From positions 45,816-109,815 of the forward strand of contig CAZSRA010000001.1 in NCBI GenBank assembly GCA_964609585.1: a stretch of 64,000 nt of DNA, given 5' to 3'. This DNA comes from an uncultured Candidatus Saccharimonadales bacterium. GTDB lineage: Bacteria > Patescibacteriota > Saccharimonadia > UBA4664. The notes under the pieces are model-generated. The model ran no database searches. It had not been told where the DNA came from and saw only the letters and a list, made by a program, of their open reading frames with translations. Positions 1 through 46,802 of the stretch are shown here, piece after piece (the stretch's first letter is position 1; each line of letters begins with the position of its first letter). The position numbers and the translations under genes are program-made.

Positions 1-2
1 AA

Positions 3-6617: not shown

Positions 6618-6620
6618 GGT

Positions 6621-9600
6621 TTGATACTGAGAGCGCGACAGATTATGCTTATGGTAATGAGTGATGGAGCCCAGAAATTTTGGCGTAGGTTGATGCTGGA
6701 GCGCAGGCGGGCGCTGGGTTCGGCTGCGCGCCTGCGAGCTAGGGGCTGGCAAGGAGTCAAACGGGTCGACATTCGAAAGCCGCTTCATGCGTTATCGATA
6801 GCTGTGATACTAGCTGGAATCGTAGCGCCAATTGCGGATTGGGTGGCGACCAACGAGCAATATCGGATGAGTGACGCTATTAAAGCAGTAGCGGAGAGTG
6901 CGGCACCGGATTTTGAGAATAAGTTGCTGTATGACGGGTCTAAGCATGCCAGCATTTTTAATGCAGCAGGTGGGGATGTGGGTAAGGACGCCCTGGCTGG
7001 GGAGGTAGGTGGCGGGAAAAATCAGCTTTATACGAGTACGCTGCCGGATGATCCGTCGCAGGGAGTTGAAGTAGCGGACAATGTGAACCATGTGTCGGTA
7101 AGATTTGTGCCGCAGATGGGGCTTTTGGGTGGGCGCACCGAGAATGGGCATGTGGTGTATCCGCTCAAAGACGCAGCCGGGCAAATGATTTTTACGCCCA
7201 AAGGCAACGGATTGAAGGAAGATATTGTTTTAACAACTGCGCCGAAGAACGACGTGGTGGAATTTCATTATCATTTAGTGTTTCCGAGTTCACTCGTGGC
7301 CCGGCTGGAAGATGATGGGAGCATTGGGTTTTATAGTGGTGACCCGCAGCTGTTTGGCAACATTAGCTATGGGAGCGACAAAGACCGAGCGGCGGTGGAT
7401 AAGGCTCGTGAGAATTCCCCAAAGACGTACCTGATGTTTAGGATTCCGGCGCCGCGAATACGGGAGACCGGTAAGAGCACGACTGTGGCGGCGCGGTTTA
7501 ACCTGAGTGGAAACGATTTGACGGTGAGAGCGGCGGGTCTGGGTAAGGCCCATTATCCGCTTTCGATCGACCCAACGTTTTTGCTGACGTCGACGGCGGA
7601 TTTTGTGTTGGGCTCAATTGATGACAACATTGATCTTTCGGTAGCAAACCAGGTGGGGCGGCAGGCCTTGGTGGGTGGGTCGACACCAGGCTGGACGGCT
7701 CTTGCAGCACCGAACCTTACGTATGCGAACTTTGCTTCGTCGCTCGTGGCCTACAACGGATTTTTGTATCTGATTGGTGGTGGTAGTGGCAACAACACCA
7801 CGAATGGTGGGGCCGGTGCTTCGGGTACAACGAGTAATGATGTGCGTTATATTTGTTTGAACCCGACCACGGGGGCGCTCGGGACGAACGGTGGTTGTAC
7901 GCCGGCGGCCTGGACCAACACGGGCAACTCGCTTTTGGGGACGGCGCGCCAGGGATTGGTGGCATTTGGTTTTAATGGGTATTTGTACGCGATTGGTGGA
8001 GAAGACAATAGCGGCAACCCTATCACGACAGCGTCGGGTCACACGGTGGAATACGCCAAGATTAACTCGGACGGGACGGTGGGGACGTGGAATTATGGGT
8101 CGAGTTTGAATACGGCGCGGAGTTATCCGGCGGGGGCGATTTATCAGGGAATTTTGTATGTGATGGGGGGTACAAGCGCCAACAATAACACGACGCCGGT
8201 GTCGACGATTGAATGGGCGCGGATAAAAGGTGACGGGACGCTTGGCACCTGGACGCAATCGACGTCGTCGGCGACGGGGAATTTAACAAGTGCGCGGAGT
8301 AAGTTTCAAGGGGGAGCTTATAACGGATTTGTGTATGTGTCCGGAGGGCAGACTTCTTCGACGACGGTTATTAATACCATCCAGTATGCGCCGATTCACA
8401 GCGATGGGTCGCTCGGCGCGTGGGTGACGACGACGGCGTTTCCGACGGCCAGACGAGATCATGGTATGGCCATTAATAATGGCTATGTGTATGTGTTTGC
8501 CGGGTGTACGGGGGCGGCGGAGCCGTGTGCGAGCTTCATTAAGGATATGCAGTACGCGGTGATTAATCCGGATGGGAGTATTGGGCAATGGCAGAGTTCG
8601 TTGCCCTATGACAGTGGGCACGTCGACAATGTGGCCGATTATAACACGCGTATGCCGGCGGGGGTAACGTCGTACAGTAACCACCTTTATTTTGTGGGTG
8701 GATGCAGTGCTGAGACGGCTACGAATAACTGTGGAACGCAGCTGGTGGGAACGTTTATTTCCAATATTGATGCGGTGGGGCGGTTTGACCAGGGGTTGTC
8801 GAACTTGCAGACGACGGTGCCGTACAACAATAATGCATCGACAGTGGCGCGCATGGGCGGTGGGGCGGTGGCGCTCAATGGGTATTTGTACTACATCAGT
8901 GGGTCGGCGACATCGGGTGGAACGGCGTATTCGAGCGTCGTTGAGGATACGCCGATTAATGCCGATGGAACGCTCGGGACGTTTTCCACGACAACGGCTT
9001 TGCCAGCGTCGGTGGCGGGGGACAATGCTGGACGCGTGGGATTTACGGTGGCGGCGTACAATAATAAGATTTATGTGATTGGTGGCGTGGAGTTGCTCAC
9101 GGCAGGTGGGGACAACTTCATGAAGTATGTGCTCACGGGCACACAAGGTTCGTCGGGGGCGATTACGGGCTGGGTGGTAGAAACGAATACGATCCCGCGG
9201 TTTGTGGGCTCGACTAGTGATGGTGTTGGGTATCATACGACGGTGCAGTGGCACAACTACATTTATGTTATTGGTGGCTTCAACGGCACCCAGGTGAGCG
9301 CGGATATTATGTATTCGCAAATTCAATCCAACGGGACGCTTGGGACCTGGAATACTACTACCAATGGACTGTCGCAGGCGCGATGGGCAGCTGCGGGGGG
9401 GATTTGGGGGAATTGGTTGTACGCCGTCGGAGGAGAGGCGAACGCGGCCGGGACAACATTTGTGGGCACAACGGGCGCCAACCACGCGGTGGAGCAATTT
9501 ACCATTCAAAGTAACGGCAATATTACCTCGGCCTCTACGGGGTATGCATATCCGATATCGCAGCGGCATGCAAATGGGTTTGTGCAAAATGGGTATTTGT

Positions 9601-11378
9601 ACACCTTTGGGGGCATTACGAGTGGTTCAACGGCCGCGACCAATAACATTTACTGGGCACGGCTGGATCCCAGTACGGGTGGACCGGCAACTTTTGTGAA
9701 TACAAATATTGGTAATACCCCTGCGGGCACAGCGGGGCTGACGACGGCTCGGCATCAGATCGCTGCGGTGACAGCAAATGGGGTGATGTATATTCTCGGA
9801 GGATGCACGAGTACCCTGGCGCTAGGGGCAACAAACTTTGACGCCTGTACGGCTTTTGTGACTACGGCGCACACGACGGAAGTATTTTTGCCAAATAATG
9901 GCGGGACGGGGGACGTAAATGCGTTTAGTTCGGCTACGGCACTTTCGACGGCCACGGCGGATCATGCGACGGTGGCGTATAACGGCGTTTTGTACGAGAT
10001 TGGTGGGTGTACCGCGTATACCACGGGCGTGTGTACATCGGGGTCGAACTCGAACGCGATTTCGCAGGCGCCGATTAATCCGGATACGGCGACTGCGCCG
10101 GGGCAGCTGGGGAGCTGGTCGACTTCGGCAACGACGATTCCGGTGGCGGGGCGGTCGCTGCTTCAGGCAGTGGCGTATAACGGGTATCTGTATGTGATTG
10201 GCGGTCGGACGGATTCCACGGCGGCGGTTGGGACTGTGGCATATACGACGATTGGTAGTACCGGAACCCTCGGGACTTCGTGGAATAATGCCGACCTCCC
10301 GAGTGGTGCGGAGCGCAATGCCTTTGGGGCGACGGTTTTGAACGGCTTTATTTATGTGGCGGGTGGCGATAACGGCTCCGGGACGAAGAAGAGTGACGTG
10401 TATTATGCGCAGATTAGTACTGTGGACGGAAGTCTGGGGACATGGACACAGAATACCAACTCGTTTACGACGGCGCGGTCGGCCTTGAGCGTGGTGGGTT
10501 ATAACGGGCGGCTGTATGTGATTGGAGGAACAGATGGTACGAATACTTTGACGGATGTGCAGTTCGCGACTCAAGCGAATGATGGGTCGCTTGGGACGTT
10601 TAGCTACACCGGGGATGTGTCGAGGGGTATGAGTTTTAGGCAAGCGGTGGGGGCGAATGGCTACTTGTATTTTGTGGGCGATGAAGGCGACGGTACGGAA
10701 CTTCAGTATGCGGACATTAATGCCAATGGAACGCTTGGGCCGATGAGCCGGGCAACGCACGTGATGGCTGGGGCTCATGCGCATGGGGCCATGTCGTGGT
10801 TTGGTGGGTTTTTCTACGAAATTGGTGGCTGTACGATGACGGCAGGTGCATGTACGACGGGCGGGCTTTTGACATCCGACGAGTTTGCGGGCCAGGAAGT
10901 GATTTCGCGAGTGGGGCATTATTCGAAATTGTTTAATACGCAGGTGGATACATCGCCGACGCAGCTGGTAATTAATGGGGCCAACAATGGACCTGGGGCG
11001 GCGGTGGAGTTTAAACTGCAAACGGCGAGCTCGGCGGACCCGGTGTTGGGCGTGGCGCAATTGATTCGGCCGGTGATTTTTAACAATTTCTACAATGTGC
11101 AGGCGTTGAACTCGAGCGGCGCGAATGTGGGGGTGGCGCTGAACTATCTATTTTTGATCACGCTTGATGACAGCCGGTCTGGGACGTTTCCGGATGTGTC
11201 TTACGCTGGGGCGACCGGTTTTGCGCAGACGGCCGTAACAGATATTACCTTGTACTACCACGCAAACCCGGGTCGTCGCCTCAGGCACGGAGCGTCGTTT
11301 ACGTCGACGGACTGCAACCCGGCGATTCCGGCATCATTGCCGTCGACGGCGGGGTGTTTGCTCGATACGGCGCCGTAA
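6621..11378 (+). CDS. Giant Kelch-repeat beta-propeller protein (1585 aa) with an N-terminal TM anchor. The start is TTG 6621, with an alternative ATG at 6645.
   Basis: There are more than 20 Kelch-type repeats of the form 'YNG(Y/F)(L/I)Y(V/A)IGG' (e.g. YNGFLYLIGGGSG, LNGFIYVAGGDNG, YNGRLYVIGGTDG). The N-terminal hydrophobic helix is ALSIAVILAGIVAPIADWV. The gene begins 4 nt after the stop of the upstream giant gene. Confidence 0.8.
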   Translation: MILRARQIMLMVMSDGAQKFWRRLMLERRRALGSAARLRARGWQGVKRVDIRKPLHALSIAVILAGIVAPIADWVATNEQYRMSDAIKAVAESAAPDFENKLLYDGSKHASIFNAAGGDVGKDALAGEVGGGKNQLYTSTLPDDPSQGVEVADNVNHVSVRFVPQMGLLGGRTENGHVVYPLKDAAGQMIFTPKGNGLKEDIVLTTAPKNDVVEFHYHLVFPSSLVARLEDDGSIGFYSGDPQLFGNISYGSDKDRAAVDKARENSPKTYLMFRIPAPRIRETGKSTTVAARFNLSGNDLTVRAAGLGKAHYPLSIDPTFLLTSTADFVLGSIDDNIDLSVANQVGRQALVGGSTPGWTALAAPNLTYANFASSLVAYNGFLYLIGGGSGNNTTNGGAGASGTTSNDVRYICLNPTTGALGTNGGCTPAAWTNTGNSLLGTARQGLVAFGFNGYLYAIGGEDNSGNPITTASGHTVEYAKINSDGTVGTWNYGSSLNTARSYPAGAIYQGILYVMGGTSANNNTTPVSTIEWARIKGDGTLGTWTQSTSSATGNLTSARSKFQGGAYNGFVYVSGGQTSSTTVINTIQYAPIHSDGSLGAWVTTTAFPTARRDHGMAINNGYVYVFAGCTGAAEPCASFIKDMQYAVINPDGSIGQWQSSLPYDSGHVDNVADYNTRMPAGVTSYSNHLYFVGGCSAETATNNCGTQLVGTFISNIDAVGRFDQGLSNLQTTVPYNNNASTVARMGGGAVALNGYLYYISGSATSGGTAYSSVVEDTPINADGTLGTFSTTTALPASVAGDNAGRVGFTVAAYNNKIYVIGGVELLTAGGDNFMKYVLTGTQGSSGAITGWVVETNTIPRFVGSTSDGVGYHTTVQWHNYIYVIGGFNGTQVSADIMYSQIQSNGTLGTWNTTTNGLSQARWAAAGGIWGNWLYAVGGEANAAGTTFVGTTGANHAVEQFTIQSNGNITSASTGYAYPISQRHANGFVQNGYLYTFGGITSGSTAATNNIYWARLDPSTGGPATFVNTNIGNTPAGTAGLTTARHQIAAVTANGVMYILGGCTSTLALGATNFDACTAFVTTAHTTEVFLPNNGGTGDVNAFSSATALSTATADHATVAYNGVLYEIGGCTAYTTGVCTSGSNSNAISQAPINPDTATAPGQLGSWSTSATTIPVAGRSLLQAVAYNGYLYVIGGRTDSTAAVGTVAYTTIGSTGTLGTSWNNADLPSGAERNAFGATVLNGFIYVAGGDNGSGTKKSDVYYAQISTVDGSLGTWTQNTNSFTTARSALSVVGYNGRLYVIGGTDGTNTLTDVQFATQANDGSLGTFSYTGDVSRGMSFRQAVGANGYLYFVGDEGDGTELQYADINANGTLGPMSRATHVMAGAHAHGAMSWFGGFFYEIGGCTMTAGACTTGGLLTSDEFAGQEVISRVGHYSKLFNTQVDTSPTQLVINGANNGPGAAVEFKLQTASSADPVLGVAQLIRPVIFNNFYNVQALNSSGANVGVALNYLFLITLDDSRSGTFPDVSYAGATGFAQTAVTDITLYYHANPGRRLRHGASFTSTDCNPAIPASLPSTAGCLLDTAP

Positions 11379-11393
11379 AGGTGCTAGCTATCG

Positions 11394-11468
11394 GAATAAT
11401 AATATCGGTTGCTGCGGAACTCGCTGAGCTCAGACAGTCCTCGCTAACCGATATATTATTATTCTTTT
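11394..11468 (+). terminator. Long hairpin followed by a T-tract after the Kelch giant gene.
   Basis: Stem gaataataatatcggtt (11394-11410) pairs with aaccgatatattattattc (11446-11464). It is followed by tttt at 11465-11468. Confidence 0.5.
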
Positions 11469-11528
11469 AGCTTTGTCGCCCGATAATGTGCCGGGCTCCT
11501 TGGCTACGGACATGGTAGAATAACGCTA

Positions 11529-13838
11529 ATGCTTAGTTTTAGAAGACGGCTTGGGATGGTCGGACTGGCGGCAGCTCTCGTAGTGGGCTTGCTGCCGGTG
11601 CCGGTTGGGGCAAGCATTGATTCGTGTGGCGCGTCGATCTCGCCGTCGTCGATGGGGCCGGGGACCGATACGGTCATTAATGTGCAGGTGATGAATGTAT
11701 CGGGTCCGACGATGGTATGGGTGCAGATTGTGCGGCCAAATAGCGATTATACGATTAGTGGAGCTACGCTAGACGGCTGGAGCGGGAACGTGTCGGCTAA
11801 TGCGGTGGTGTTTACGGGTGGAACTTTGGATGGGGACGGCCGGATGACGGCTCAGCTAACGGTGCATGCGGTGGCTTGGCAGAGCGCGCCGGCCAACTGG
11901 ACGGTGCGGGCTTCGGATAGCACGTTTGGGGCGAGCGCATTGGATTGCACCGGCTCACGGTCGACGACGATTCAGACTTACTTATCGCCGGATAATCAGG
12001 GAGCGGGTATTTCGGCGGTAACAGCGCAGCCGACGGCTACAACGGCAGTGGTGCGTTGGCATAGTGATGTGCCAACGGGATCTGGTGTGGCGTACGGTAC
12101 GACGAGTGATTATAGCTCGAGTTCGCCGTACGATTCGACCCTGGTGACGGATCATGCGGTGACGCTTGGAGGACTGGAGCCGGCTACTGGCTATCATTTT
12201 CAAGTGGCAGGACTTGATGATGGGAATGCGCCGTATTATTCGGGAGATAACACATTTTTGACTGCGGTGGCTCCGCCGAGCGGAGGCGGCGGATCGAGCG
12301 GGGGAGGCGGGAGTTCGGCCAATGCTGGAGGGGCCACAAACCCTACCAAGGTTGTGACGAGTGGCCTGACAGCACCGCGCGGGACCATTGCGATTAGCCA
12401 GGCGCCGACTGAGGTAGTGCCACCAACAGTGGTGGTAACTACGAGCATGGCCCGGCCTTTTACGGTGGATCCGGTGATTACGGGCGCAGCGGGTGATAAT
12501 GTGGCGGTGGCGAGGATAGATTACTCGCTTGATGGTGGGAAGAGCTGGATTGTGGTGCCGAGTCCGTCTGGGCTGGGCACGAAGCGAGTGGTTTTTACCT
12601 TTACGGCAGCAGGGCTCGATGATGCCAATTATATTCTGGTGGTAAGGGCCACCGATACTTCGGGAAATATTGCTACCACGGCACCTGCGACGCTGGTGGT
12701 AGACCGGGAGCCGCCACGGATCGGGGCGGAGCTGGTGTCGTTTGGGTCACAGGTAGCCTCACTGGACGGGGCGGGACAGCAGCATGCGGCCGTGGGAGTA
12801 GACCAGATGGTGACATTAAATGCTGTAGGAGGGCCGGTAACAATAACGATTGGCGCGACTCGAATTGGGGCTACACGGTTTGGGCAGAGCTTTTCTTTGC
12901 GCCATGATTTGGATAGTGGTTTGTGGTCGGGAGTGTTGGCGTTTAGTGCCGCGGGGACCTACCGGCTGGTGGTGACGGCGGTAGACGGGGCGGGTAATCA
13001 GACGGTTCGGAGTTTGTCGGACGTGGTGGTGAGCGCACCGGCACGGGTGGTGGGGGCAGAGCATGGGCGAGCCTTGGCCGGAGCTCGGGTGACGTTGTAT
13101 TCATTTCTCGCAGCTTCAAGCCAATGGGTGGAATGGGACGGTGGGGCTTATGGAGAGGCCAATCCGCTCCATACTAAGGTTGACGGGACGTTTGCAATGC
13201 TGGCGCCGGTAGGCAAGTACTACTTGAAGGTTGAGGCGCCAGGGTATCAGACGCTGGTAACTCAGGAATTTAGCGTGAATCATGCGACGGCGCTGGTACC
13301 AATTTTGCGACTGGCGGCTACGCCGCTGCTGCATCTGGGAAGCTGGTCGTGGCCACTGCCAGGCATAACATTGTCGCAGACGCGAGTGTCGGCTGAGGGC
13401 GTGACGAACGCAACAAACGCGGTCAGTTCTGCCTCGGAGGGTGGGCGTTTGCCGACTTTTCGACTGCCGACAACGGCTGATGGTACGGATACTCCGGTGG
13501 GACTTCAGGGTAAACCTACACTGATAACAATGCTTGCAACCTGGGCGCCTACTACGGCTGAGCAATTGCCGGCTTTGGCCGAGCTTGGTAAATCCCGGAG
13601 TGACGTAAATGTGGTGCCGCTTTATCTGGGTGAGCGGTTGGGTAAGGTGCAAACGACCCTTGCCCAGGCGGGTTACGACCTAGTCGCTATGGTAGATACC
13701 CAGGCATTGCTTGGGGACGAGCTGGGTGTACCGAACGTACCGAAGCACTATTTTGTGGATAGTAATGGCAAGGTGATGGCGAGCTATGTGGGTGTTCTAT
13801 CGGCCAAAGAGCTTGCGGACCGATTGAGCGGATTGTAG
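11529..13838 (+). CDS. Secreted multi-domain protein (769 aa). Order: signal peptide, Ig-like domain with two Cys, FN3/PAP-N-like domain, Gly/Ser linker, Ig-like domain, CarboxypepD_reg/Cna-B-like domain, C-terminal Cys-less TlpA/ResA-like thioredoxin fold.
   Basis: The N-terminus MLSFRRRLGMVGLAAALVVGLLPVPVGA is a signal peptide. 'VVRWHSDVPTGSGVAYGTT...GYHFQVAG' is FN3-like. 'ARIDYSLDGGKSW' is Ig-like. The C-terminus 'GKPTLITMLATWAPTTAEQLPALAEL...HYFVDSNGKVMASYVGVLSAKELADRL' aligns to the TlpA WCxPC region, but both Cys are replaced (WAPTT). It is a paralog of 34736..37039. Confidence 0.75.
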   Translation: MLSFRRRLGMVGLAAALVVGLLPVPVGASIDSCGASISPSSMGPGTDTVINVQVMNVSGPTMVWVQIVRPNSDYTISGATLDGWSGNVSANAVVFTGGTLDGDGRMTAQLTVHAVAWQSAPANWTVRASDSTFGASALDCTGSRSTTIQTYLSPDNQGAGISAVTAQPTATTAVVRWHSDVPTGSGVAYGTTSDYSSSSPYDSTLVTDHAVTLGGLEPATGYHFQVAGLDDGNAPYYSGDNTFLTAVAPPSGGGGSSGGGGSSANAGGATNPTKVVTSGLTAPRGTIAISQAPTEVVPPTVVVTTSMARPFTVDPVITGAAGDNVAVARIDYSLDGGKSWIVVPSPSGLGTKRVVFTFTAAGLDDANYILVVRATDTSGNIATTAPATLVVDREPPRIGAELVSFGSQVASLDGAGQQHAAVGVDQMVTLNAVGGPVTITIGATRIGATRFGQSFSLRHDLDSGLWSGVLAFSAAGTYRLVVTAVDGAGNQTVRSLSDVVVSAPARVVGAEHGRALAGARVTLYSFLAASSQWVEWDGGAYGEANPLHTKVDGTFAMLAPVGKYYLKVEAPGYQTLVTQEFSVNHATALVPILRLAATPLLHLGSWSWPLPGITLSQTRVSAEGVTNATNAVSSASEGGRLPTFRLPTTADGTDTPVGLQGKPTLITMLATWAPTTAEQLPALAELGKSRSDVNVVPLYLGERLGKVQTTLAQAGYDLVAMVDTQALLGDELGVPNVPKHYFVDSNGKVMASYVGVLSAKELADRLSGL

Positions 13839-13850
13839 AAAGTTTGTTTT

Positions 13851-14552
13851 TTAAGCGCTTGGAGTAGTGGACGGAGGCGTGACGGTTGGCGCTTCGGTGA
13901 CTGGAGCTTGAGCGGGTGCGGGCATAGCTGCGGGTGCAGTTGGTGCCACTGCTGGAATAGCGGCGGGTGCTGCGGCCTCTGACGGCGGCGTAGCAGGAGC
14001 TGCTGGGGCTGTTGCCGGAGCGGCGGGTGTGGGCGTCGAAGGAATTGCGGGTGCTGCCGGAGTGGTGGGTGCTGGAGCTGTTGCTGCCGGCACTGCAGGA
14101 GTGGGTACGGCAGCGGGAGCTGCTGCCGGCGCGGTTGTTGCGGCCGGAGCCGGAGCCGCGGCACTGGCGGTTAAGACTTCTTTAACGATACTTGCCACAT
14201 CTTTGGGGTCGTGTTCACTTTTAATGATGTATTTGACGGCACCTTTGGCAATGGCGGATTCAGCGTCTTGTTGACCGGCGAGGTTGGTGAGCATAATAAC
14301 GGGAGTGGCCTTGAGTTTGGGGTCGGCTTTGACCTGCTCGAGAGCAGCAAGGCCGTTTAGCCGGGGCATCATGACGTCTAGAATCATGAGAGTCGGTGGA
14401 TTTTCGCGAGCTTTGTCGAGGGCATCTTGGCCGTCAACGGCCATTTGGACTTGGTAGCCTTCGAAATTGAAAACTTTTTCGTAAAGGCGAGCCATCATTG
14501 GGTCATCTTCTGCGATAAGGATGCGTGTAATCATGGCTTGATTGTACCTCAT
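13851..14552 (-). CDS. Stand-alone response-regulator receiver domain (CheY-like) with a ~110-aa Pro/Ala/Thr-rich C-terminal low-complexity tail and no DNA-binding output domain.
   Basis: Receiver signature residues are present: AEDDPMM, LMILDVMMP (phospho-acceptor Asp), LTNL (Thr) and KYIIK (Lys). The tail is APAPAATTAPAAAPAAVPTPAVP... It sits last in a minus-strand operon after the 311-aa surface protein and the sensor-like membrane protein. Confidence 0.8.
   Translation of the reverse strand: MRYNQAMITRILIAEDDPMMARLYEKVFNFEGYQVQMAVDGQDALDKARENPPTLMILDVMMPRLNGLAALEQVKADPKLKATPVIMLTNLAGQQDAESAIAKGAVKYIIKSEHDPKDVASIVKEVLTASAAAPAPAATTAPAAAPAAVPTPAVPAATAPAPTTPAAPAIPSTPTPAAPATAPAAPATPPSEAAAPAAIPAVAPTAPAAMPAPAQAPVTEAPTVTPPSTTPSA
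13860..14200. repeat. Low-complexity GC-rich coding repeat (gctgc/gccgg periodicity) encoding the Pro/Ala/Thr tail of the receiver protein.
   Basis: Direct reading shows imperfect short tandem repeats. The opposite-strand ORF 14029..14274 (Gly/Ala/Val-rich) is its antisense artefact. Confidence 0.6.
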
Positions 14553-14565
14553 ATTTTAGGAGTTA

Positions 14566-16152
14566 TTAATGGAGTTGGCGAGAAATTTGGCTGGCAAGGG
14601 CAAAAACGGGAATTGTGATTACGAGCAGGGCAAGCGATGCGCCGATAAAAGTGAGGCCAACAGCGCTTTTGGCGCTACTTAGCACCACGTCTTGGGGCTG
14701 GCCGACAAAGAGCATGCCGACAACGGTATTATTAATGTTTTTGAGTGGTAGGTACACGGATAAATAGGGTTGGCCCGCGATAGTAAAGATGCCTTTGGAG
14801 ATTTGGCCGTGTTTGATGGTGGTATCGAGTACTTGAGCGTGCGTTTCCTTGGTGCCGATGGAGCGCGAAACACCATCTAGCTCGGTGAGGGTGCTGGCGG
14901 CTCTAATGGTGCCGCTATAAACGGCGCTGTCAAGACCGGTTTTGTGTTTGAGGCCGTCGGCGAAGGCGTTGTCGAGTGCTAGGCTTACCAGGGCGGTGCC
15001 AATGATCTGGCCATTTTGTTTGATGGGGCTGGCGGTGGTGATGACGAGGGTGGGGGCGAGGGCGCCGGAATGGGCGGCGAAGCTGGAGTTGGTAGCGTTG
15101 TTTAGGGCTCGCTGTACCAGTGGGTCGTTTGAAAGTGAGTCGCCGGAGCGCTCAGGATCGGAGGCGCGGGACAAGATTCTGCCGGCGTCGTCGGTGATGA
15201 TGACCTCAGAGAGCTGTTTATTTATGAGGAGGCTACCGGTGATGTTCGTAAGTGCGGTGTGATCGTGGGCGGTGGTGGCGGCGATTGTTGCGGGGTCGCT
15301 TGCTAGAACTTCGGCATTGGTGCGGGTGTCGGCGGTTTTGCTATCGACGGCGTAGCTGAGAACTTTGCTGGTGGTTTCGAGGCTTGCGAGCGAATCGCGC
15401 TGGAGACTGCTTAGCAGGAGGGCGGAAACGCTGGTGGTGGCCGTTAGAACGATGGCGAAGGTGAGACTTGTGATGGTGAGGAATAACTGGCCGAGGAGGC
15501 GTTTGGTGAGATAACGCCAGACCCAGCGGGCAAGGAGGGCGGAACCAACGAGAATGGCCAGGTGTTCTAGTATCCAAAAAGGGCCGAAAACGGTAATGAA
15601 TGGCTGGAGGAGGGGATTACTACTGGTGCTCCAAAGTTGCGAGACGGCGAAGCTGTCGGAGAGCGTGAACGTGAGAAAAACGACAGCCAGGGGCTTTAAA
15701 TGTCGTTCAAGGCCGCGGGTGGCAATGCGCCAGTAGACGAGGCTTGTTGTGAAAGCGGCGATAGGTAAGAGGCTGGTGAGGCCGGTAGTGACTTGGGGCG
15801 GGATGATGGCGGCTGGAATCCAAGCTGGGGACGGGGTGTAGCCAGTGGTTTTGGGGCGGGGTTGAAGCGGGACAATGAGATTTCCGGTGATAATGCCGAT
15901 GTAGCCGGCAAACTTGAGCAGGTTTGCGATGAGGCCGATAAGACCAGGATTTCCCCAGGTGGCTCCGTTCATGAGGAAACCGGCGGCGAGTAATAGAAAA
16001 CCGCCACCTTTCGTGATCTCGGTGAGGTGGCGACGTTCGACCCAGGCATCCAGAAACAGCCAGGCGGCGGAGAGGCAGGCAAGAGCTGCGAATAAGTTGA
16101 TGCCGAAATGAAGGCTTTGGCCAATGAATTGGACAGAGATGACGTCTGGCAT
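14566..16152 (-). CDS. Polytopic membrane protein (528 aa). It has ~6 N-terminal TM helices, an extracytoplasmic Cache-like sensor domain and one C-terminal TM helix. No kinase, HAMP or MCP output domain is present.
   Basis: Hydrophobic helices run through residues ~1-290. TM-embedded motifs RGLERHLKP and FGPFWILEH are conserved in the paralog 37056..38804. The C-terminal part '...YLSVYLPLKNINNTVVGMLFVGQPQ' followed by a TM helix resembles the end of a Cache/sensor domain before TM2 of histidine kinases. The protein stops right after that helix. Confidence 0.65.
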   Translation of the reverse strand: MPDVISVQFIGQSLHFGINLFAALACLSAAWLFLDAWVERRHLTEITKGGGFLLLAAGFLMNGATWGNPGLIGLIANLLKFAGYIGIITGNLIVPLQPRPKTTGYTPSPAWIPAAIIPPQVTTGLTSLLPIAAFTTSLVYWRIATRGLERHLKPLAVVFLTFTLSDSFAVSQLWSTSSNPLLQPFITVFGPFWILEHLAILVGSALLARWVWRYLTKRLLGQLFLTITSLTFAIVLTATTSVSALLLSSLQRDSLASLETTSKVLSYAVDSKTADTRTNAEVLASDPATIAATTAHDHTALTNITGSLLINKQLSEVIITDDAGRILSRASDPERSGDSLSNDPLVQRALNNATNSSFAAHSGALAPTLVITTASPIKQNGQIIGTALVSLALDNAFADGLKHKTGLDSAVYSGTIRAASTLTELDGVSRSIGTKETHAQVLDTTIKHGQISKGIFTIAGQPYLSVYLPLKNINNTVVGMLFVGQPQDVVLSSAKSAVGLTFIGASLALLVITIPVFALASQISRQLH

Positions 16153-17072
16153 TATTGGGCTACAAGATAGTCATAGTTTAGGGCGGAACCGGTGGGGGCG
16201 GGAGAGTCGGTGTGAACCTGGAAACCGCTGGTGGTGCGCGTGATGTAGGCTGGCGTGCTGGCGGCGGCACCGGTGAGTGGGGTGAGCATGACATGCACGG
16301 TACTTGAGTAAGCGGCGCGGAAGGTGATGGTGCCGAGGACGCCAGCGGCGGTGCTCCCGCCAGTATTGAAGTTCAGGGTACCGGTAGTATCGTTGCCGCT
16401 GAGACTCACGGTGCCGCCAGCACCAACGGCGGCACCAGCGACAGCGCCGGGAGCAGCGCCTTGGGTTTGGAGGTGGCTAATGAGAAGCGGGCCGCTGATG
16501 GTGAGCGTATTCACGGCGATGGAGCTGGCATTGAGGGCATTTACACTGGTGGCGCCGGTGACGCTGAGATTGCCGTTGACGGCCGCAAGTCCGGTAACGC
16601 TTAAGCTCTTTTGAAAGGTGGCGAGGCCGGCTACAGTGAGATTTGAGCCGACGTTGAGTCCAGTGAGAGCAGTGGTGCCGGAAATGTTGAGCTCAGAGAG
16701 GGTGACAGGACCATTGGCATTGAAGTGGCCGCCCACACTGAGGTCCCCGCCAACATCGATTTTGCCGCGGAAGATGGTGTCGGCGCCGATGTTTAAGTTT
16801 TGCCCGTTGCTACCGAGGGTGGAGCCGACTTGGCTGAGCCGACTGAGCTCGGCTGGGGTGAGATTGGTGATAGAGGGAGTATTTGTTTTGGGGGCTGGTT
16901 GTTTACTTTTGGCATAAAAATAACCGACGGCGACGCCAATAACTATGAGAAACACGAAAAGCGCCGTGATACTGGCGGCTGTCGTGGCTCTGGCTTGGAG
17001 TTGGTTCCAGCGTGGTCCTTTCGGGCTTGCCTGTGGTTTTATAGGGTTTTGGGAAGGCGTGACTGGGGGCAT
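16152..17072 (-). CDS. Membrane-anchored surface protein (~306 aa) with beta-helix-like S/T/G/N repeats. The ATG at 17072 is preferred; the ORF track starts at TTG 17087.
   Basis: The RBS gaggaact lies 4 nt before ATG 17072. The TM helix is ITALFVFLIVIGVAVGYFYA. Repeats include 'LNISGTTALTGLNVGSNLTVAGLATFQKSLSVTGLAAVNGNLSVTGATSVNALN'. Its stop overlaps the start of the next gene (TAATG), suggesting translational coupling. Confidence 0.6.
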   Translation of the reverse strand: MPPVTPSQNPIKPQASPKGPRWNQLQARATTAASITALFVFLIVIGVAVGYFYAKSKQPAPKTNTPSITNLTPAELSRLSQVGSTLGSNGQNLNIGADTIFRGKIDVGGDLSVGGHFNANGPVTLSELNISGTTALTGLNVGSNLTVAGLATFQKSLSVTGLAAVNGNLSVTGATSVNALNASSIAVNTLTISGPLLISHLQTQGAAPGAVAGAAVGAGGTVSLSGNDTTGTLNFNTGGSTAAGVLGTITFRAAYSSTVHVMLTPLTGAAASTPAYITRTTSGFQVHTDSPAPTGSALNYDYLVAQ

Positions 17073-17100
17073 AGTTCCTCGAACCAATTGATGATTGTAG

Positions 17101-17125
17101 GCATTATAACGCTTATGCCTGGCTG
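17101..17125. promoter_or_regulatory. Conserved -10-like motif 'ttataacgcttatgcctggctga' in the divergent intergenic region. On the minus strand it reads as a perfect TATAAT 34 nt upstream of ATG 17072.
   Basis: The motif recurs upstream of 18104 (tttataatgcttatgttaggctga). Similar motifs lie upstream of 21149 (tataagcttaag) and 38910 (tataagcgttag). Confidence 0.35.
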
Positions 17126-17200
17126 ATGCTATTTAAGCTGAGCCAAGCCAAGCATGAGCGGATTTGCGAAATGTGTTCTAATGCGCCAAGATGATACTTA

Positions 17201-18019
17201 ATGAGACGATGGAATCGCCAGGTTGTGATTGTTGTGGCCCTATGTTTGGGGGTTTCGGGTATGGCTCATGCGACGCTGGGTGATCCGACTTCAACGTCGA
17301 CGAGTTATAAGGTCGTGGAAAGCGAGATAGGTGGAAGTGGCTGCGCAAATAAGACTGTTCCAGCTTGCGGCGGTTCGACCTCGTATTCGCTCGACCCGAA
17401 TGTGGATGATGGCGGTTCGACGTTGGGTGATACGGCTGTTGGAAACTCGAGTTCGACGAGTTATCAGACGAACAGCGGCTTTGATACTACGGCGCAACCG
17501 GGGCTTACAATGACAGTAAGCGGGACGCCTGCGGACTTGGGGGCGCTTTCGACGTCTGCGGCGAGTACTGCGACAGCGACTTTTAATGTTAAGAACTATA
17601 CGGCTTGGGGTTATGCAGTGCAGATCATAGGTTCGCCCCCGACCAACAGTGGACATGCGCTAACAGCTATGACGACAACTTCATATGGTGATGCTTCGGT
17701 AAATAATACGGAGCAGTTTGGACTGAACCTTGTGCACAATACGAGCCCAGTGGCTGTAGGGACTAATCCGGCTCAGATACCAAGCAGTTCGTTTAGCTAT
17801 GGCGTAGCAGGAGATGGCGCAACTGGGACATTTGGTACTAACCGGCCATATACCGTCGATGGACGATACCGGTTTGTGTCGGGGGAGACTGTGGCGAGTG
17901 CGCCAAAGTCTTCAGGTGAGACGGATTATACGATAACGTTTTTAGCGAATATGGGGCCGACAACGCCGGGTGGTAAATATAGTGGAGCATTGCAAATTGT
18001 GGCAACGGGGACTTATTGA
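17201..18019 (+). CDS. Secreted beta-rich protein, paralog family member P1 (272 aa).
   Basis: Signal peptide MRRWNRQVVIVVALCLGVSGMAHA. Shared motifs with P2-P4 are 'EQFGLNLVHN' and a C-terminal strand 'GGKYSGALQIVATGTY' that ends exactly at the stop. Confidence 0.7.
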   Translation: MRRWNRQVVIVVALCLGVSGMAHATLGDPTSTSTSYKVVESEIGGSGCANKTVPACGGSTSYSLDPNVDDGGSTLGDTAVGNSSSTSYQTNSGFDTTAQPGLTMTVSGTPADLGALSTSAASTATATFNVKNYTAWGYAVQIIGSPPTNSGHALTAMTTTSYGDASVNNTEQFGLNLVHNTSPVAVGTNPAQIPSSSFSYGVAGDGATGTFGTNRPYTVDGRYRFVSGETVASAPKSSGETDYTITFLANMGPTTPGGKYSGALQIVATGTY

Positions 18020-18023
18020 CGCG

Positions 18024-18048
18024 TTTATAATGCTTATGTTAGGCTGAC
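18024..18048 (+). promoter_or_regulatory. Conserved promoter-like motif with a plus-strand TATAAT (18026-18031) upstream of P2.
   Basis: About 20 of 29 nt are identical to the motif at 17101-17129. Confidence 0.35.
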
Positions 18049-18103
18049 TGTAGTTATTGCGTAGATGGCTGTAAAAGCGTAAGGGTAAAGGAAAACTGAG
18101 ACA

Positions 18104-19234
18104 ATGAATAAGAGAGAGATTTTAAGAGCTCACTATATCGGGTTGCTGAGAAAGGCGATGAACTGGGCTGGGCTTTTTGCCTTACTCTCTACGACACTCA
18201 TGGCGAGCCCGGTGAGTGCTACGGCTGGTGTGCTTGGCACAAGGAGTTCTACGCTCAACAACTCAAAGGGTGCGGCAACAAACGTTACGTCCACATTTCT
18301 TGTGACTCCTGGTACGAGCGCAACAATTAAGGGTGTGAAGTTTTCTTTGTGTACTTCGCCGCTTCTGTCTGTCTCATGTGCATCACCCGCAGGAGCGACT
18401 CTGGCTGCTGCTACGGCTGGATCGCAGCTAAAGAATGCTGGTGCTATCACAAACCCCTACGCTAGCCCGGCATACACAAGCACGACCGATGTGTGTTTTA
18501 CGAACGCTACCGGTAACGCTTTTAACGGCTCGTCGGACACGTTTACTTTTCCGCTTCAGGTTATAAGCTTGCCAACAGCCGTAAATACTCAGTTCTACTT
18601 CCGTGAGCAAACGTTCTCTAGTGCTGACTGTACCACGACTGCAGTTGACTTTGGTGGCTTTGCCGAGTCGACAACTCAGCAGCTTTCTGTGACAGCGAGC
18701 GTTCAAGAAAACTTGGCATTTTGTGTAGGTAACGCGAACCCTTCAGGTACATGTGCATCGATTGGGACTGGTACTGTAACCTTAAGCCCATCTGTTATGA
18801 CAACGAGCGCTCCGTCGATTGGTAACGCTTGGATGATGGTAACGACCAATGCTGGTACAGGTTATGTCATTACGTATAACGCAACTTCGTTTACTGATAC
18901 GACCTCCGATACCATCACAGCTGCTCCATCGGGTGGAGCTGCCCTTGGAGCAGGCGGCAGTGAACAGTTTGGCTTCAACTTGGTGGCAAACTCGGGTGGT
19001 AACTTCGGAACGTTCGGTGCTGCGCCAACGAACAGTGGTGCCGCAACGAGCCCCTATGGCACTAACAACCAGGTGGCCTATAACACTGCGGGCGCTACGC
19101 AGGTTGCGAGCTTTGGTAGCCCGACCGCGAGTCCGCAGACCTACACCATCTCATACGGTGCTAACGTAGCAGCTACTACTAAGGCTGGTGTTTACACATC
19201 GACGCAGACGTTTATCGCGACCGGCACTTTTTAA
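18104..19234 (+). CDS. Secreted beta-rich protein, paralog P2 (376 aa). An alternative start at 18158 is possible.
   Basis: The hydrophobic signal is LFALLSTTLMASPVSATAG. Shared motifs are 'EQFGFNLVANSGG' and the C-terminus 'AGVYTSTQTFIATGTF'. Confidence 0.7.
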   Translation: MNKREILRAHYIGLLRKAMNWAGLFALLSTTLMASPVSATAGVLGTRSSTLNNSKGAATNVTSTFLVTPGTSATIKGVKFSLCTSPLLSVSCASPAGATLAAATAGSQLKNAGAITNPYASPAYTSTTDVCFTNATGNAFNGSSDTFTFPLQVISLPTAVNTQFYFREQTFSSADCTTTAVDFGGFAESTTQQLSVTASVQENLAFCVGNANPSGTCASIGTGTVTLSPSVMTTSAPSIGNAWMMVTTNAGTGYVITYNATSFTDTTSDTITAAPSGGAALGAGGSEQFGFNLVANSGGNFGTFGAAPTNSGAATSPYGTNNQVAYNTAGATQVASFGSPTASPQTYTISYGANVAATTKAGVYTSTQTFIATGTF

Positions 19235-19247
19235 CCACTCGTCTTTC

Positions 19248-19281
19248 AAATACACGCACTTGGAATGGTGCGTGTATTTTT
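19248..19281 (+). terminator. Rho-independent terminator after P2.
   Basis: Stem aaatacacgcac pairs with gtgcgtgtattt across loop ttggaatg and is followed by a T-tract. The RBS aggagag lies before ATG 19297. Confidence 0.65.
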
Positions 19282-19296
19282 AATCAGGAGAGAGAT

Positions 19297-21057
19297 ATGA
19301 AGCAATTTATCCGTTTCAGGAGTCGCACGAAAAAATCGCTTGCTGTGGTCGCAACATTGGTGATTGAAATGGGTAGCTTGTTTCTGCCAGCAATGTCAGG
19401 GGTTGCTCAGGCGTCGCCTAGTATTACTGAGTATTCTGTTCCGACAGCTAGCGCCACGCCGGAGGGGATAACATTTGGTCCTGACGGGGCTTCTTGGTTT
19501 GTAGAATACAGCGGTAATAACATCGGACGTATTGATGCGGATGGTTCTGTTGTAGAATATGCGATCCCGACAAGCGGTGCTAACCCTTACAGTATTACGA
19601 CTGGGCCAGATAATGCTCTTTGGTTTACGGAATTTAGCAGCGGCAAAATTGGACGTATCACTACGTCGGGTACTATAACGGAGTTTTCAATCCCTTCGAG
19701 CACCCCGCGGCCGTATGGTATCGCCACTGGGCCCGATGGGGCTTTGTGGTTTACTGAGACCAACGCAGGAAAAATCGGGCGAATTACTACTTCGGGTAAT
19801 ATTACTGAGTTTAGTATTACGGGTAGTTTGACTCTTGTTCCGACTGGCATTGCTTCCGGTTCAGACGGCGCTCTCTGGTTTGCAAATTATTCAGACAATA
19901 GCATTGGCCGCATCACGACGAATGGGGTGGTTACGATATACCATATTCCGTCGACTGCTCAAGGTGGAGCTACGACTGGACCTTACGAAATTACAAACGG
20001 ACCCGATGGCGCCTTATGGTTTAGCGAGCTTTCCAACGCGAATCACATTGGCAGGATTACTACTTCGGGTGTAATAACCGAATTTCCGATACCGACATCA
20101 TCTGCATACCCTCTAGGGATTACGGTGGGATCGGATGGGGCTCTATGGTTTACTGAACTCGCAGGAAATAAAATTGGTCATATAACGACTTCGGGTGATG
20201 TGACTGAGATTTCAGTACCGACGGATGGTGCTGAGCCGGCTGAGATTACGGCGGGAGCTAATGGTTCGTTATGGTTTACGGAGGACACCGGAAAGATCGG
20301 TTATATCTCTACTGCACCAGTTGCATCATCTGCTCCGACTGGTTTGAGCGCTGTAACTCCTACAAATAATGCTCCGGTTCTAACTTGGAACTCGGTACCT
20401 ACGGCTGCGAGCTACCAGGTGTGGCGGCAGGATACTTTGACTGGCTTGACGGTGGAGGCGGCATCTAATGTGGCGACGAATAATTTCACGGATGTGTATT
20501 CGCCGGGCGTCTACAATTATACGGTGGTGGCTGTGAATGGTGCCGGGGCAATGAGCGCGCCGTCGACGGCTTTTCAGGTGGCGGTTACGAATACGGCAGC
20601 GACAAACTCACGCAATCTTATGGCCCAGGGTCAGTCCCAGGTGCTACCTGCTTTTGGTAGGGACATTTTGCCTGGTTTGGCTTCTGGTAATGCAATTCAA
20701 GCTTCGTTTGACTTTGATTTGGGGTATCCGGGTGGTGTGTTTACGGTAACTCGTCCACTTACTTTTACGTTTAATGCTGGTGGACACACGTTGTTCATTG
20801 CTGCAACAAGCTCCGATTGGTTGGTGATAAATGGTGCGAATAACGCTCAAGGGACATTCCAGGGGGTTGCTAGGGTTGATCTTGATAATGTGACGACGGC
20901 TGGACTGCCTTACACGGTGACGGCGGTGGATGGTATGCAGGCTGGGGGCGGTGTGTCTAGTAGCTTTAAACTTACGGTTTTTGCCGATAGCTCTCGTTCT
21001 ACCGTTTTGTATTCGGTAAACGGACCGCTGACAAAAGGCAAGATTAAGGTGAATTAG
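19297..21057 (+). CDS. Secreted protein with a 7-bladed Vgb-like (streptogramin-lyase-type, COG4257) beta-propeller, then an FN3-like domain and a C-terminal domain of unknown function.
   Basis: The blade repeat 'ITE(F/Y)(S/P)(I/V)P...P(Y/E)GIT.GPDGALWFTE...(N/G)KIGRITTSG' occurs seven times. 'PTGLSAVTPTNNAPVLTWNSVPTAASYQVWRQ' is FN3-like. An N-terminal signal peptide is present. Confidence 0.75.
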   Translation: MKQFIRFRSRTKKSLAVVATLVIEMGSLFLPAMSGVAQASPSITEYSVPTASATPEGITFGPDGASWFVEYSGNNIGRIDADGSVVEYAIPTSGANPYSITTGPDNALWFTEFSSGKIGRITTSGTITEFSIPSSTPRPYGIATGPDGALWFTETNAGKIGRITTSGNITEFSITGSLTLVPTGIASGSDGALWFANYSDNSIGRITTNGVVTIYHIPSTAQGGATTGPYEITNGPDGALWFSELSNANHIGRITTSGVITEFPIPTSSAYPLGITVGSDGALWFTELAGNKIGHITTSGDVTEISVPTDGAEPAEITAGANGSLWFTEDTGKIGYISTAPVASSAPTGLSAVTPTNNAPVLTWNSVPTAASYQVWRQDTLTGLTVEAASNVATNNFTDVYSPGVYNYTVVAVNGAGAMSAPSTAFQVAVTNTAATNSRNLMAQGQSQVLPAFGRDILPGLASGNAIQASFDFDLGYPGGVFTVTRPLTFTFNAGGHTLFIAATSSDWLVINGANNAQGTFQGVARVDLDNVTTAGLPYTVTAVDGMQAGGGVSSSFKLTVFADSSRSTVLYSVNGPLTKGKIKVN

Positions 21058-21148
21058 ACGCTCGTTTTGAGTATGAGGTTCGTTGACTGTTCTCACCTAG
21101 GCGCGTAGTATAAGCTTAAGCAATTTATATGAGCTTGTTTTGTAGATT

Positions 21149-23406: not shown

Positions 23407-23451
23407 CTTCAGGGTTGCACATGATCTGGGCTTTGGGATACACTTCAGGTA

Positions 23452-24432: not shown

Positions 24433-24456
24433 GCCGCTTGTGCTAAACTGTGAAGC

Positions 24457-25413: not shown

Positions 25414-25460
25414 GGTAGTAAATTAGGCTTGTCTAAGGCAATTTTCAGCATGAACAATGC

Positions 25461-25489
25461 TTGTGCTTGAGCTCAAGAAGGCCTATAAT
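25461..25489 (+). promoter_or_regulatory. Sigma70-like promoter for the 2452-aa giant gene.
   Basis: -35 ttgtgc (25461-25466), a 17-nt spacer, -10 tataat (25484-25489). The RBS agagg lies 6 nt before ATG 25521. Confidence 0.5.
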
Positions 25490-25520
25490 TTGTACGTTAG
25501 TTATAGTTTGCTAGAGGTAC

Positions 25521-32879: not shown

Positions 32880-32902
32880 GGTGATTTGAGCTGATGCAAG
32901 CT

Positions 32903-32929
32903 AAAAGGAGCCTGAAATGGGCTCCTTTT
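32903..32929. terminator. Bidirectional rho-independent terminator between convergent genes.
   Basis: Stem aaaaggagcc, loop tgaaat, stem gggctcctttt. It has A-tracts 5' and T-tracts 3'. Confidence 0.7.
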
Positions 32930-32957
32930 AGTGTGGGATGCTAAGCCGTTTTAAGAT

Positions 32958-34073: not shown

Positions 34074-34195
34074 GGATACCTCCTTAATTTTTTAGTAATT
34101 TTAAGCATAAGAGTTATGAATGAGCGATACAATAGTTCGGTATACACGACGCGAGTTGCTGTTGAGCGACATGTTCGTTACACTGAGCATAAGCA

Positions 34196-34693: not shown

Positions 34694-34735
34694 TTTTGCT
34701 GGCTTGCAGGCGTAATTGAGGGTACAATAAAGCTA

Positions 34736-37039: not shown

Positions 37040-37055
37040 TGGATAGCGGCACCTA

Positions 37056-38804: not shown

Positions 38805-38909
38805 TTTCCCCTGTTTTTGATTAAAAATGGGCTCGCAGTCTGGAAAAATCCATGCCTGTGAGCCCCAAATTATGATAAGATATAAGCGTTAGTATTTTGG
38901 TGTGAGGTA

Positions 38910-41873: not shown

Positions 41874-41884
41874 TGGAGGCCCGA

Positions 41885-46792: not shown

Positions 46793-46802
46793 ATTACCCG
46801 CA

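Follow-up and report, generated by a model that had tools for sequence, protein, structure and literature searches.

A gene on the minus strand of a 64,000-nucleotide stretch of DNA from an uncultured Candidatus Saccharimonadales bacterium (contig CAZSRA010000001.1; the whole stretch is referred to below as the window) encodes a membrane protein in which seven transmembrane (TM) helices are followed by a double Cache domain, an eighth TM helix and, almost immediately, the end of the chain. The genes of its homologs lie in a conserved two-component cassette together with a histidine kinase, a CheY-like receiver (REC) and a surface protein with a cysteine-less thioredoxin fold, a context that was missing from the initial annotation of this DNA. 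On balance, we favor the view that the Cache protein serves as a stand-alone co-sensor of this cassette, which would signal by contact to a partner kinase and/or to the receiver. Because the protein has no transmitter of its own, information must pass sideways, and a co-sensor is the most economical explanation for the combination of a dCache input domain, a missing transmitter and neighboring kinases that mostly have no outside domain. The gene and its main parts are the following.

14566..16152, minus strand: Cache gene, encoding a 528-residue protein with seven TM helices, a dCache_3 domain and TM8 but without an output domain (open reading frame, Pfam, AlphaFold2 model and homologs).
15415..16152, minus strand: seven-helix membrane bundle of no described family, residues 1-246, with TM7 running on into the stalk helix of the Cache domain.
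14683..15405, minus strand: double Cache domain, residues 250-490, with a CitA/DcuS-like distal and an sCache_3_3-like proximal module.
14566..14670, minus strand: TM8 and a short conserved tail, (S/A)(R/K)QLx, followed by a double stop, residues 495-528 (translation and DNA).

The open reading frame, for which the initial annotation had named no strand, begins with an ATG codon, its start at position 16152 overlaps the stop of the upstream gene, and it closes with H-TAA-TAA, 13 nt before the receiver gene. An AlphaFold2 model of the full-length protein, built on 44 homologs (mean predicted local distance difference test score, pLDDT, 88; predicted TM-score, pTM, 0.74), placed helices at residues 4-40, 43-64, 70-93, 119-145, 150-174, 191-215 and 219-285 ahead of the Cache domain. 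The last of these spans 67 residues and comprises both TM7 and the Cache stalk, while residues 94-118 form a disordered, proline-rich TM3-TM4 loop that varies in length among homologs. After the two alpha/beta Cache modules comes the final helix, 487-527, and the tail beyond TM8 amounts to nine residues. The initial annotation had correctly described a protein that stops right after a TM helix. It had counted about six N-terminal helices and referred to the C-terminal one as the second TM segment, whereas in the model seven precede the Cache domain and one, TM8, follows it. Its claim that HAMP, HisKA, HATPase, GGDEF and chemoreceptor signaling (MCP) modules are absent was likewise upheld, since neither Pfam nor NCBIfam matched HAMP, HisKA, HATPase_c, MCPsignal, GGDEF or EAL in the 528 residues. 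HisKA and HATPase_c remained unmatched even at E ≤ 1 in both collections, and for want of these and the other defining domains the protein is not a histidine kinase, a chemoreceptor or a cyclase. Residues 1-250 had no Pfam match at all, and NCBIfam added nothing for the whole protein.

The abrupt ending proved to be characteristic of the family. A sequence search retrieved 48 relatives with 35-65% identity, all of 506-598 aa except for two fragments and two longer proteins. Cache families were the sole recurrent Pfam domains among them, and the named relatives came from Candidatus Saccharimonadia or Patescibacteria. In public annotation they appear only as 'cache domain-containing protein' or 'hypothetical protein', save for one homolog (P0028) that is labeled 'methyl-accepting chemotaxis protein' by JGI, yet contains Cache domains only. 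A profile built from residues 1-240, the membrane domain only, matched 374 of 1.84 billion cluster representatives at E ≤ 1e-3, and the best 150 of these were proteins of approximately 470-660 aa with the identical layout, or short fragments. A second profile search that reported Pfam content showed nothing but Cache domains among the matches listed, with the exception of P0201. Conservation was counted either in 150 near-full-length members or in 44 aligned homologs. The tail after TM8 measured 8-12 residues in 149 of the 150 members, and the ending is therefore a feature of the family and not a truncation. By this measure, the output-less architecture is a stable family trait.

These data bear directly on the idea that the protein is a functionless remnant, that is, a sensor kinase or chemoreceptor truncated through pseudogene formation, gene fission or an assembly artefact. 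At one locus (L001), the Cache gene is followed after 70 nt by the start of a soluble PAS-HisKA-HATPase gene, which might be taken for the product of a fission. Against this, the same ending with its conserved tail motif recurs in 149 of 150 relatives down to about 35% identity, the gene closes with a double stop, two diverged paralogs are both intact in the window, and most neighboring kinases have complete membrane domains. A truncated kinase is thus effectively refuted by conservation, and we attach next to no probability to a remnant of any kind.

Two family members with aberrant sequences were encountered along the way. P0201 (446 aa, on a 20-kb contig) was considered as a 7TM-REC 'Rosetta stone' fusion and rejected. 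Its chimeric reading frame, which is easily mistaken for a domain fusion, consists of the seven helices, half of the Cache domain and the middle of the neighboring REC protein, and a deletion joins mid-Cache (…GDSLSDDPLMSRM) to mid-REC. This junction would place the receiver outside the cell, so that a deletion or an assembly chimera is at hand and no evidence of fusion. In the complete genome CP064960.1 (L047, 10001-11626), the Cache homolog was recovered as three adjacent tblastn segments separated by gaps of 2-8 nt, which suggests frameshifts due to sequencing errors or a pseudogene. No literature specific to the 7TM-Cache family in Saccharibacteria or Patescibacteria was found.

Gene neighborhoods were compared on contigs of distant relatives and in a scan of one genome per GTDB species, the latter yielding 44 loci that were almost all labeled Saccharibacteria or Patescibacteria; four neighbors were then mapped by tblastn around each of about 45 non-redundant loci. 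The gene for the thioredoxin-fold immunoglobulin-like (Ig) protein was located within 8 kb in 41 of 45 loci, and in 32 it was directly upstream on the same strand. A REC gene was present within 8 kb in 38 of 41 loci (directly downstream in 13), and a histidine-kinase core was found in 33 of 41 (downstream on the same strand in 24). The commonest gene order was Ig/thioredoxin-fold protein, 7TM-Cache protein, kinase, REC. Being encoded with a kinase and a regulator is what is expected of accessory components of two-component systems, and this applied to the family as a whole, the window itself having the REC only. Furthermore, 11 of the 16 kinases whose genes start right after the Cache gene were polytopic, with 5-8 TM helices and no large outside domain. 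One of the adjacent kinases, at locus L005, was resolved by Pfam as HisKA_7TM-PAS-HisKA-HATPase. Of the remainder, four had two TM helices around a CHASE4 or dCache_1 domain and one was a soluble PAS kinase. Most partner kinases are thus without an extracellular sensor of their own. Several loci contained two or three REC genes (L027, L029, L034, L039 and L042), and Cache genes occurred in tandem at L029 (10001-15442), L040 (8083-13501) and L043 (10001-15841). At L029 and L040, each Cache copy had its own thioredoxin-fold Ig gene directly upstream; the second copy at L043 aligned in two pieces and may be disrupted.

In the window, the Cache gene is present in two copies, with the following neighbors.

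13851..14552, minus strand: REC gene, a single receiver domain with an intact DD/D/T/K set and a Pro/Ala-rich tail of about 100 aa (Pfam Response_reg, E 2.1e-23).
11529..13838, plus strand: partner gene 1, encoding a signal peptide, Ig/FN3/CarboxypepD_reg domains and a C-terminal thioredoxin fold without CxxC, reading TWAPTT instead (Pfam, motif census and synteny).
34736..37039, plus strand: partner gene 2, paralogous to 11529..13838 and directly preceding the second Cache gene.
37056..38804, plus strand: second Cache gene, a 7TM-dCache-TM8 paralog of 582 aa (36% identity from end to end, E 8e-113).
16152..17087, minus strand: upstream gene, encoding a 311-aa, N-terminally anchored, beta-helix-like protein (open reading frame; Bactofilin match at E 0.007, below the cut-off).

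The second Cache gene had been named as a paralog in the initial annotation, and the alignment over the full length of both proteins confirmed this. Copy 1 grouped with L004, L006, L007 and L008, at which the partner gene faces the Cache gene. It belongs to an operon of the anchored beta-helix protein, the Cache protein and the REC, and its partner gene is convergent as well. Copy 2 grouped with the main clade, in which a kinase and a REC usually come next; copy 2 lacks both, and its partner gene lies directly upstream on the same strand. The Ig/thioredoxin-fold gene and the Cache gene have been duplicated and inherited as a pair. A tblastn search of the 64-kb window with the cognate kinase core detected no kinase core at 1e-5, and Pfam scans of most of the larger window reading frames, 25521..32879 not being among them, detected no HisKA or HATPase. 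With no kinase gene next to either of the window copies, the kinase must come from another part of the genome.

The partner proteins, of about 750 aa, end in a Redoxin/AhpC-TSA fold according to Pfam. None of 47 aligned partners had a CxxC motif. In its place they read W-[A/S/L]-[P/S/G]-x-x, with no cysteine at the respective positions, and both window copies read TWAPTT. The thioredoxin fold is therefore a conserved, redox-dead binding module, and a redox partnership between the Cache protein and its Redoxin-like neighbor was rejected on this ground. The gene pair does bear a resemblance to the TlpA/ResA thioredoxins with CcdA/DsbD, in which an exported Redoxin/AhpC-TSA fold is likewise found beside a polytopic membrane protein. 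However, the 7TM-Cache family has no conserved cysteine in the homolog alignment, neither in the seven-helix domain nor elsewhere, and this, together with the missing CxxC in the partner, excludes electron transfer.

The Cache part of the protein is an ordinary dCache_3 member, as the initial annotation had anticipated in proposing a Cache-like outer domain. The Pfam model dCache_3 (PF14827) matched residues 252-487 with 72.6 bits against a curated cut-off of 25.7 (E 4.7e-20), the paralog scored 65.9 bits, and sCache_3_3 matched residues 393-494. As in the Cache superfamily at large, two PAS-like alpha/beta modules are mounted on a long N-terminal helix. The domain is flanked by TM7 and TM8 with K/R-rich segments on the far side of both, which would place it outside the cytoplasm. 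The proximal module aligned with formate-binding sCache_3_3 structures (8py1 at 4e-9), and the formate-binding residues described for these related structures (PMC11804620) were mostly kept, with R417 in 35, Y467 in 40 and F482 in 31 of 44 homologs and A, T or S at the Thr position. A small carboxylate would be a reasonable first guess for the ligand. The distal module had an invariant cluster of its own, R329/D338/S339/S341. Specificity for citrate or C4-dicarboxylates as in CitA/DcuS was rejected, for the basic binding residues were not kept: the CitA residues that we take to be numbered R66, R107 and K109 have V, T and A as their counterparts in the window protein, and only the residue presumably numbered H69 aligns with the invariant R329. 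Compared with dCache_3/PDC sensors such as DctB, CitA, DcuS, LuxQ and the formate-sensing sCache_3_3 proteins, the window protein has six additional TM helices before the first flanking helix. Moreover, unlike the kinases and chemoreceptors of this type, it has no HAMP, HisKA, HATPase, MCP or GGDEF module after the second flanking helix, where the chain ends after nine residues.

Conservation points to the polytopic domain as functionally central. Twenty positions were conserved in at least 95% of the 150 members; six of these fell in the Cache domain or TM8, and 14 fell in the membrane domain (F16, W31, L32, D35, G51, P100, G147, E149, H151, W193, W210, Y214, L215 and Q222). Four segments of this domain are of particular relevance.

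16042..16062, minus strand: WLFLDAW, residues 31-37, at the Cache-side end of TM1, with W31, L32 and D35 near-invariant (144-148 of 150).
15691..15714, minus strand: GLERHLKP, residues 147-154, in the TM4-TM5 loop (translation, conservation, AlphaFold2 helices and charge counts).
15562..15588, minus strand: FGPFWILEH, residues 189-197, at the Cache-side start of TM6, with only G190 and W193 conserved.
15496..15525, minus strand: WVWRYLTKRL, residues 210-219, in the TM6-TM7 loop on the probable cytoplasmic face, with W210, Y214 and L215 near-invariant.

In the model, GLERHLKP spans the TM4-TM5 loop, which has four residues, and reaches into the first turn of TM5, across the membrane from the Cache domain. 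G147 and E149 were each kept in 149 and H151 in 147 of the 150 members, at pairwise identities of about 50% or lower. The conservation of RGLERHLKP noted in the initial annotation was accordingly confirmed. For its second motif, FGP(F/L)WI(L/G)EH, this was true of G190 and of W193 (148 of 150), but not of the terminal EH, as E196 was present in 19 and H197 in 29 of 44 homologs. From motifs in or next to TM helices, the initial annotation had suggested a catalytic or ion/ligand-binding Glu-His pair. Such a pair inside the helices is not supported, since E149 and H151 are positioned in a short, probably cytoplasmic loop and the second motif varies at its EH. Overall, the conserved residues formed two patches, one on the Cache side (W31/L32/D35/W37, P95/P100 and G190/W193) and one on the face that is probably cytoplasmic (E149/H151, Y140/R142, W210/Y214/L215/R218 and Q222). 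In the hydrophobic cores of the eight helices, the only polar positions with at least 80% conservation were H15 and Q222, both of which are at helix ends.

The orientation of the domain was assessed from the mean number of lysine and arginine residues (K+R) per loop. For the loops assigned to the inside, namely the N-terminus, TM2-3, TM4-5, TM6-7 and the tail, the means were 0.07, 0.23, 2.9, 2.4 and 2.1, and for those assigned to the outside they were 2.4 (TM1-2), 3.4 (the long variable loop) and 0.8 (TM5-6). The TM6-7 loop and the tail, which flank TM7 and TM8 on the side away from the Cache domain, were clearly positive, and the loops of that side carried a net positive charge. This is consistent with a topology in which the Cache domain is outside and the tail is inside, along with the TM2-3, TM4-5 and TM6-7 loops; as seven helices precede an outside Cache domain, the N-terminus would then be inside as well.

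The invariant residues are concentrated at both faces of the membrane, where a movement of TM7 and TM8 could be relayed. We propose that the Cache domain would bind a small ligand, the secreted Ig protein with its cysteine-less thioredoxin fold that is encoded in the cassette, or both, and that this binding would shift TM7 and TM8 against the other six helices. The shift might in turn remodel the invariant cytoplasmic surface made up of LYWRRAT-GLERHLKP, WVWRYLTKRL and the RQLx tail. Through this cytoplasmic surface, or through one within the membrane, the protein could then regulate a separate histidine kinase and/or a CheY-like receiver. The paired duplication of the Ig/thioredoxin-fold and Cache genes, the operon structure in the window and the apolar helix cores lend further support to such a co-sensor. 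The initial annotation had suspected that the membrane domain itself is the output, in the form of a transporter, a protease or a scaffold. In the context of the cassette, a scaffold or co-sensor is the best of these three options, and the apolar helix cores speak against the other two.

Several observations weigh against a co-sensor. The N-terminal halves of the partner kinases are very diverse (soluble PAS, CHASE4, dCache_1-HAMP or 7TM), and some of these kinases bear sensors of their own, so that one common way of docking is hard to discern. Both window copies are among the 8 of 41 loci that lack a nearby kinase, and even so the cytoplasmic motifs remain invariant. The total K+R count favors the topology given above only modestly, at 7.8 versus 6.6, unless the long variable loop is excluded. 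While the architecture, the conservation pattern, the missing output domain and the conserved gene neighborhood are observations, the topology, the physical contacts with a kinase or REC and the direction of signaling are deduced. Finally, the conservation of E149 and H151 would fit a chemical role too.

Such a role could consist of a catalytic or metal site, as in a hydrolase or protease, or of a phospho-accepting histidine that would exchange phosphate with the neighboring kinase and receiver in a membrane-embedded, HPt-like step. No fewer than 147 of 150 members keep each of G147, E149 and H151, the kinase catalytic domain and the REC reside on the side to which the loop is exposed, and the two or three RECs at some loci suggest a relay. 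However, the site has a single histidine with no second metal ligand nearby in the sequence, a four-residue loop at the membrane surface would be a poor place for a substrate, and there was no likeness to HisKA, Hpt, S2P, CAAX-protease, PAP2 or HlyIII models; without an HlyIII profile match, the protein also falls outside the PAQR/hemolysin-III group. In addition, H-L-K-P resembles the H-box, which we take to read H-E-L-R-T-P, one residue out of register. Chemistry at E149/H151 is therefore highly doubtful in our opinion.

The neighborhood data could also be read in the opposite direction, with the protein acting as an inside-out effector. The phosphorylated receiver would dock on the cytoplasmic face of the seven helices and alter the grip of the Cache domain on the Ig/thioredoxin-fold protein, for example in adhesion or surface display. 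This would suit the REC as the most constant neighbor (38 of 41 loci), which in 13 cases is directly downstream even without an intervening kinase, as well as the tight, co-duplicated pairing with a secreted, Ig-rich protein at loci that are surrounded by giant surface proteins. Moreover, several partner kinases have extracellular CHASE4 or dCache_1 sensors and may not need a co-sensor. On the other hand, Cache domains are input modules in every characterized protein (PMC4822843), the proximal pocket retains residues for binding a small ligand, and the prevalence among adjacent kinases of 7TM types without an outside domain is a better fit to an input role. We regard an inside-out effector as unlikely, though worth keeping in mind.

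The membrane domain on its own (residues 1-240) was modeled with a pLDDT of 87 and a pTM of 0.82 as what appears to be a compact, receptor-like bundle of seven helices, the likeness being at the level of the fold only. A Foldseek search against the PDB returned nothing significant for it (best E 0.15, TM-score ≤ 0.5), and it had no sequence relative in Pfam, NCBIfam or the PDB. Specifically, no transporter, channel or intramembrane enzyme family gave a profile or sequence match in these three collections. Neither of the two results by which the initial annotation would have been refuted was obtained, as no transporter or enzyme family claimed the N-terminal domain and the outer domain is of the Cache type. 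When 26 N-terminal domains of the family were scanned at E ≤ 10, neither 7TMR-DISM_7TM nor HisKA_7TM, 5TMR_LYT, MASE or MHYT was among the 25 most-matched families listed, in a scan in which HMMER filters remove most matches above about 0.1. Kinship with the HisKA_7TM domains of the neighboring kinases was rejected, as hhalign against 15 domains of this type gave a probability of 1%. With respect to GPCRs, 7TMR-DISM and HisKA_7TM, identities were 5-14%, and the Foldseek values given above, E ≥ 0.15 and TM ≤ 0.5, are not significant. GPCRs furthermore have their N-terminus outside, opposite to the orientation deduced here, and relative to 7TM receptor modules in general the large sensor of the window protein comes after helix 7 and not before helix 1.

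DUF5985 (PF19447), an 86-residue membrane family, was examined as a possible identity for TM1-TM3 and rejected. In 2-3 of 26 members, TM1-TM3 matched 75 of its 86 positions with a borderline score (at best 30.3 bits versus 27.3), which dropped to 25.1 bits in the context of the full-length protein, and the window protein was not matched. A search for intermediates returned only fragments of the 7TM-Cache family, and no function or literature was found for DUF5985. An internal duplication of TM1-3 and TM4-6 was likewise unsupported (hhalign probability 2.3%).

These comparisons are relevant to a ligand-gated channel or transporter, in which the Cache domain would gate a path through the eight helices, possibly of an oligomer, with the membrane domain as the output. 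A polytopic domain without a transmitter would suit this function, Cache domains do occur fused to ion channels (Table 1 of PMC4822843), D35 is invariant at the outer end of TM1, and the resemblance of TM1-3 to the three-TM DUF5985 in a few members is a weak hint of a 3+3 helix arrangement. Nevertheless, a channel seems rather improbable to us, because H15 and Q222, both at helix ends, are the sole conserved polar residues of the helix cores, the TM1-3/TM4-6 repeat is not significant, and the constant kinase and REC neighbors are left unexplained.

With more reservation still, the bundle itself may be imagined as a receptor-type transducer. The Cache ligand would be read out on the cytoplasmic E-x-H/Arg-rich surface, which could recruit the CheY-like receiver without any kinase, or H151 could be phosphorylated and act in a membrane-embedded phosphotransfer. 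Little probability attaches to this at present. If true, such a 7TM transducer would be a new mode of coupling an extracellular sensor to two-component proteins, and at the surface of these episymbiotic Saccharibacteria it would work together with a co-receptor of redox-dead thioredoxin fold.

With regard to the preferred co-sensor, accessory membrane proteins that control histidine kinases and have no transmitter are known from several systems, including YycH/YycI with WalK, LiaF with LiaS, SaeP/SaeQ with SaeS, BceAB with BceS, and LuxP with LuxQ. In its function, the whole protein most resembles these accessory membrane components of three-component systems. Like YycHI, LiaF, SaeQ and LuxP, it is encoded in a kinase/regulator operon, has a membrane anchor and an extracytoplasmic part, has no catalytic signaling domain, and would presumably act by contact. 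Unlike them, it joins a 7TM bundle to a Cache domain, and there is no kinship in sequence or fold. The cassette also differs from these systems in that it includes the cysteine-less thioredoxin-fold Ig protein and in that its regulator is a single-domain receiver. Relative to these known accessory systems, it brings in an undescribed 7TM domain, which is absent from Pfam and NCBIfam, and a pseudo-thioredoxin partner.

Saccharibacteria have tiny genomes with few signaling genes and live attached to host bacteria. To our knowledge, how they sense their host or surroundings is largely unknown, and signaling is almost unexplored in this lineage. The 7TM-Cache family is conserved across Saccharibacteria, is often duplicated and resides in a fixed cassette among giant surface proteins. 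This makes the family a concrete and testable candidate for an environmental or host-contact sensor, and it poses no paradox for the field. It also offers a clean natural case of a Cache sensor that is separated from any transmitter, and both the membrane-domain family and the conserved pseudo-thioredoxin partner are possible additions to domain databases.

Further features of the window genes were recorded. The Pro/Ala/Thr-rich tail of the REC protein covers residues ~130-233, and its orthologs elsewhere, of 132-139 aa, consist of the REC domain only. The exact 233-aa sequence was not present in the protein collection, and the real start may for this reason be the internal Met7. The 311-aa protein contains a repetitive, beta-helix-like region, and its gene and the Cache gene are translationally coupled. 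Only the nearest relatives, L004 (6115-6981) and L007 (2474-3325), have conserved it at this place, with 56-66% identity. In the second Cache protein (37056..38804), the TM3-TM4 loop is about 70 residues long (residues ~100-175), Pro/Gln-rich and highly basic (…EKKHWWQRRKKPKMQPQPPQP…); across the family, the length of this loop ranges from 19 to 91 residues.

The surroundings of the cassette are rich in genes for surface proteins. The giant or long surface proteins encoded at 25521..32879 and 38910..41873, both on the plus strand, have a common N-terminal domain of about 250 aa with 48% identity, and the latter protein was unmatched by Pfam. Many other genomes encode this N-terminal domain as well, at a distance of 5-10 kb upstream of the cassette (L001, L009, L013, L023, L025, L030, L031, L033, L035, L037, L039, L044, L048 and L049), which suggests a larger conserved surface-protein neighborhood. 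From 17201 to 25413 on the plus strand, there is a run of seven secreted-looking genes, five of which encode Thr/Ser/Gly-rich proteins unmatched by Pfam. The run includes a 586-aa protein with a Vgb_lyase-family beta-propeller match (19297..21057, E 1.3e-102) and a PKD/Glucodextranase_B protein (24457..25413). Lastly, the GC skew was positive in every 2-kb window of 1..64000, ranging from 0.06 to 0.33 and mostly exceeding 0.2. It was positive over minus-strand genes too, and the cumulative skew rose monotonically with no switch.

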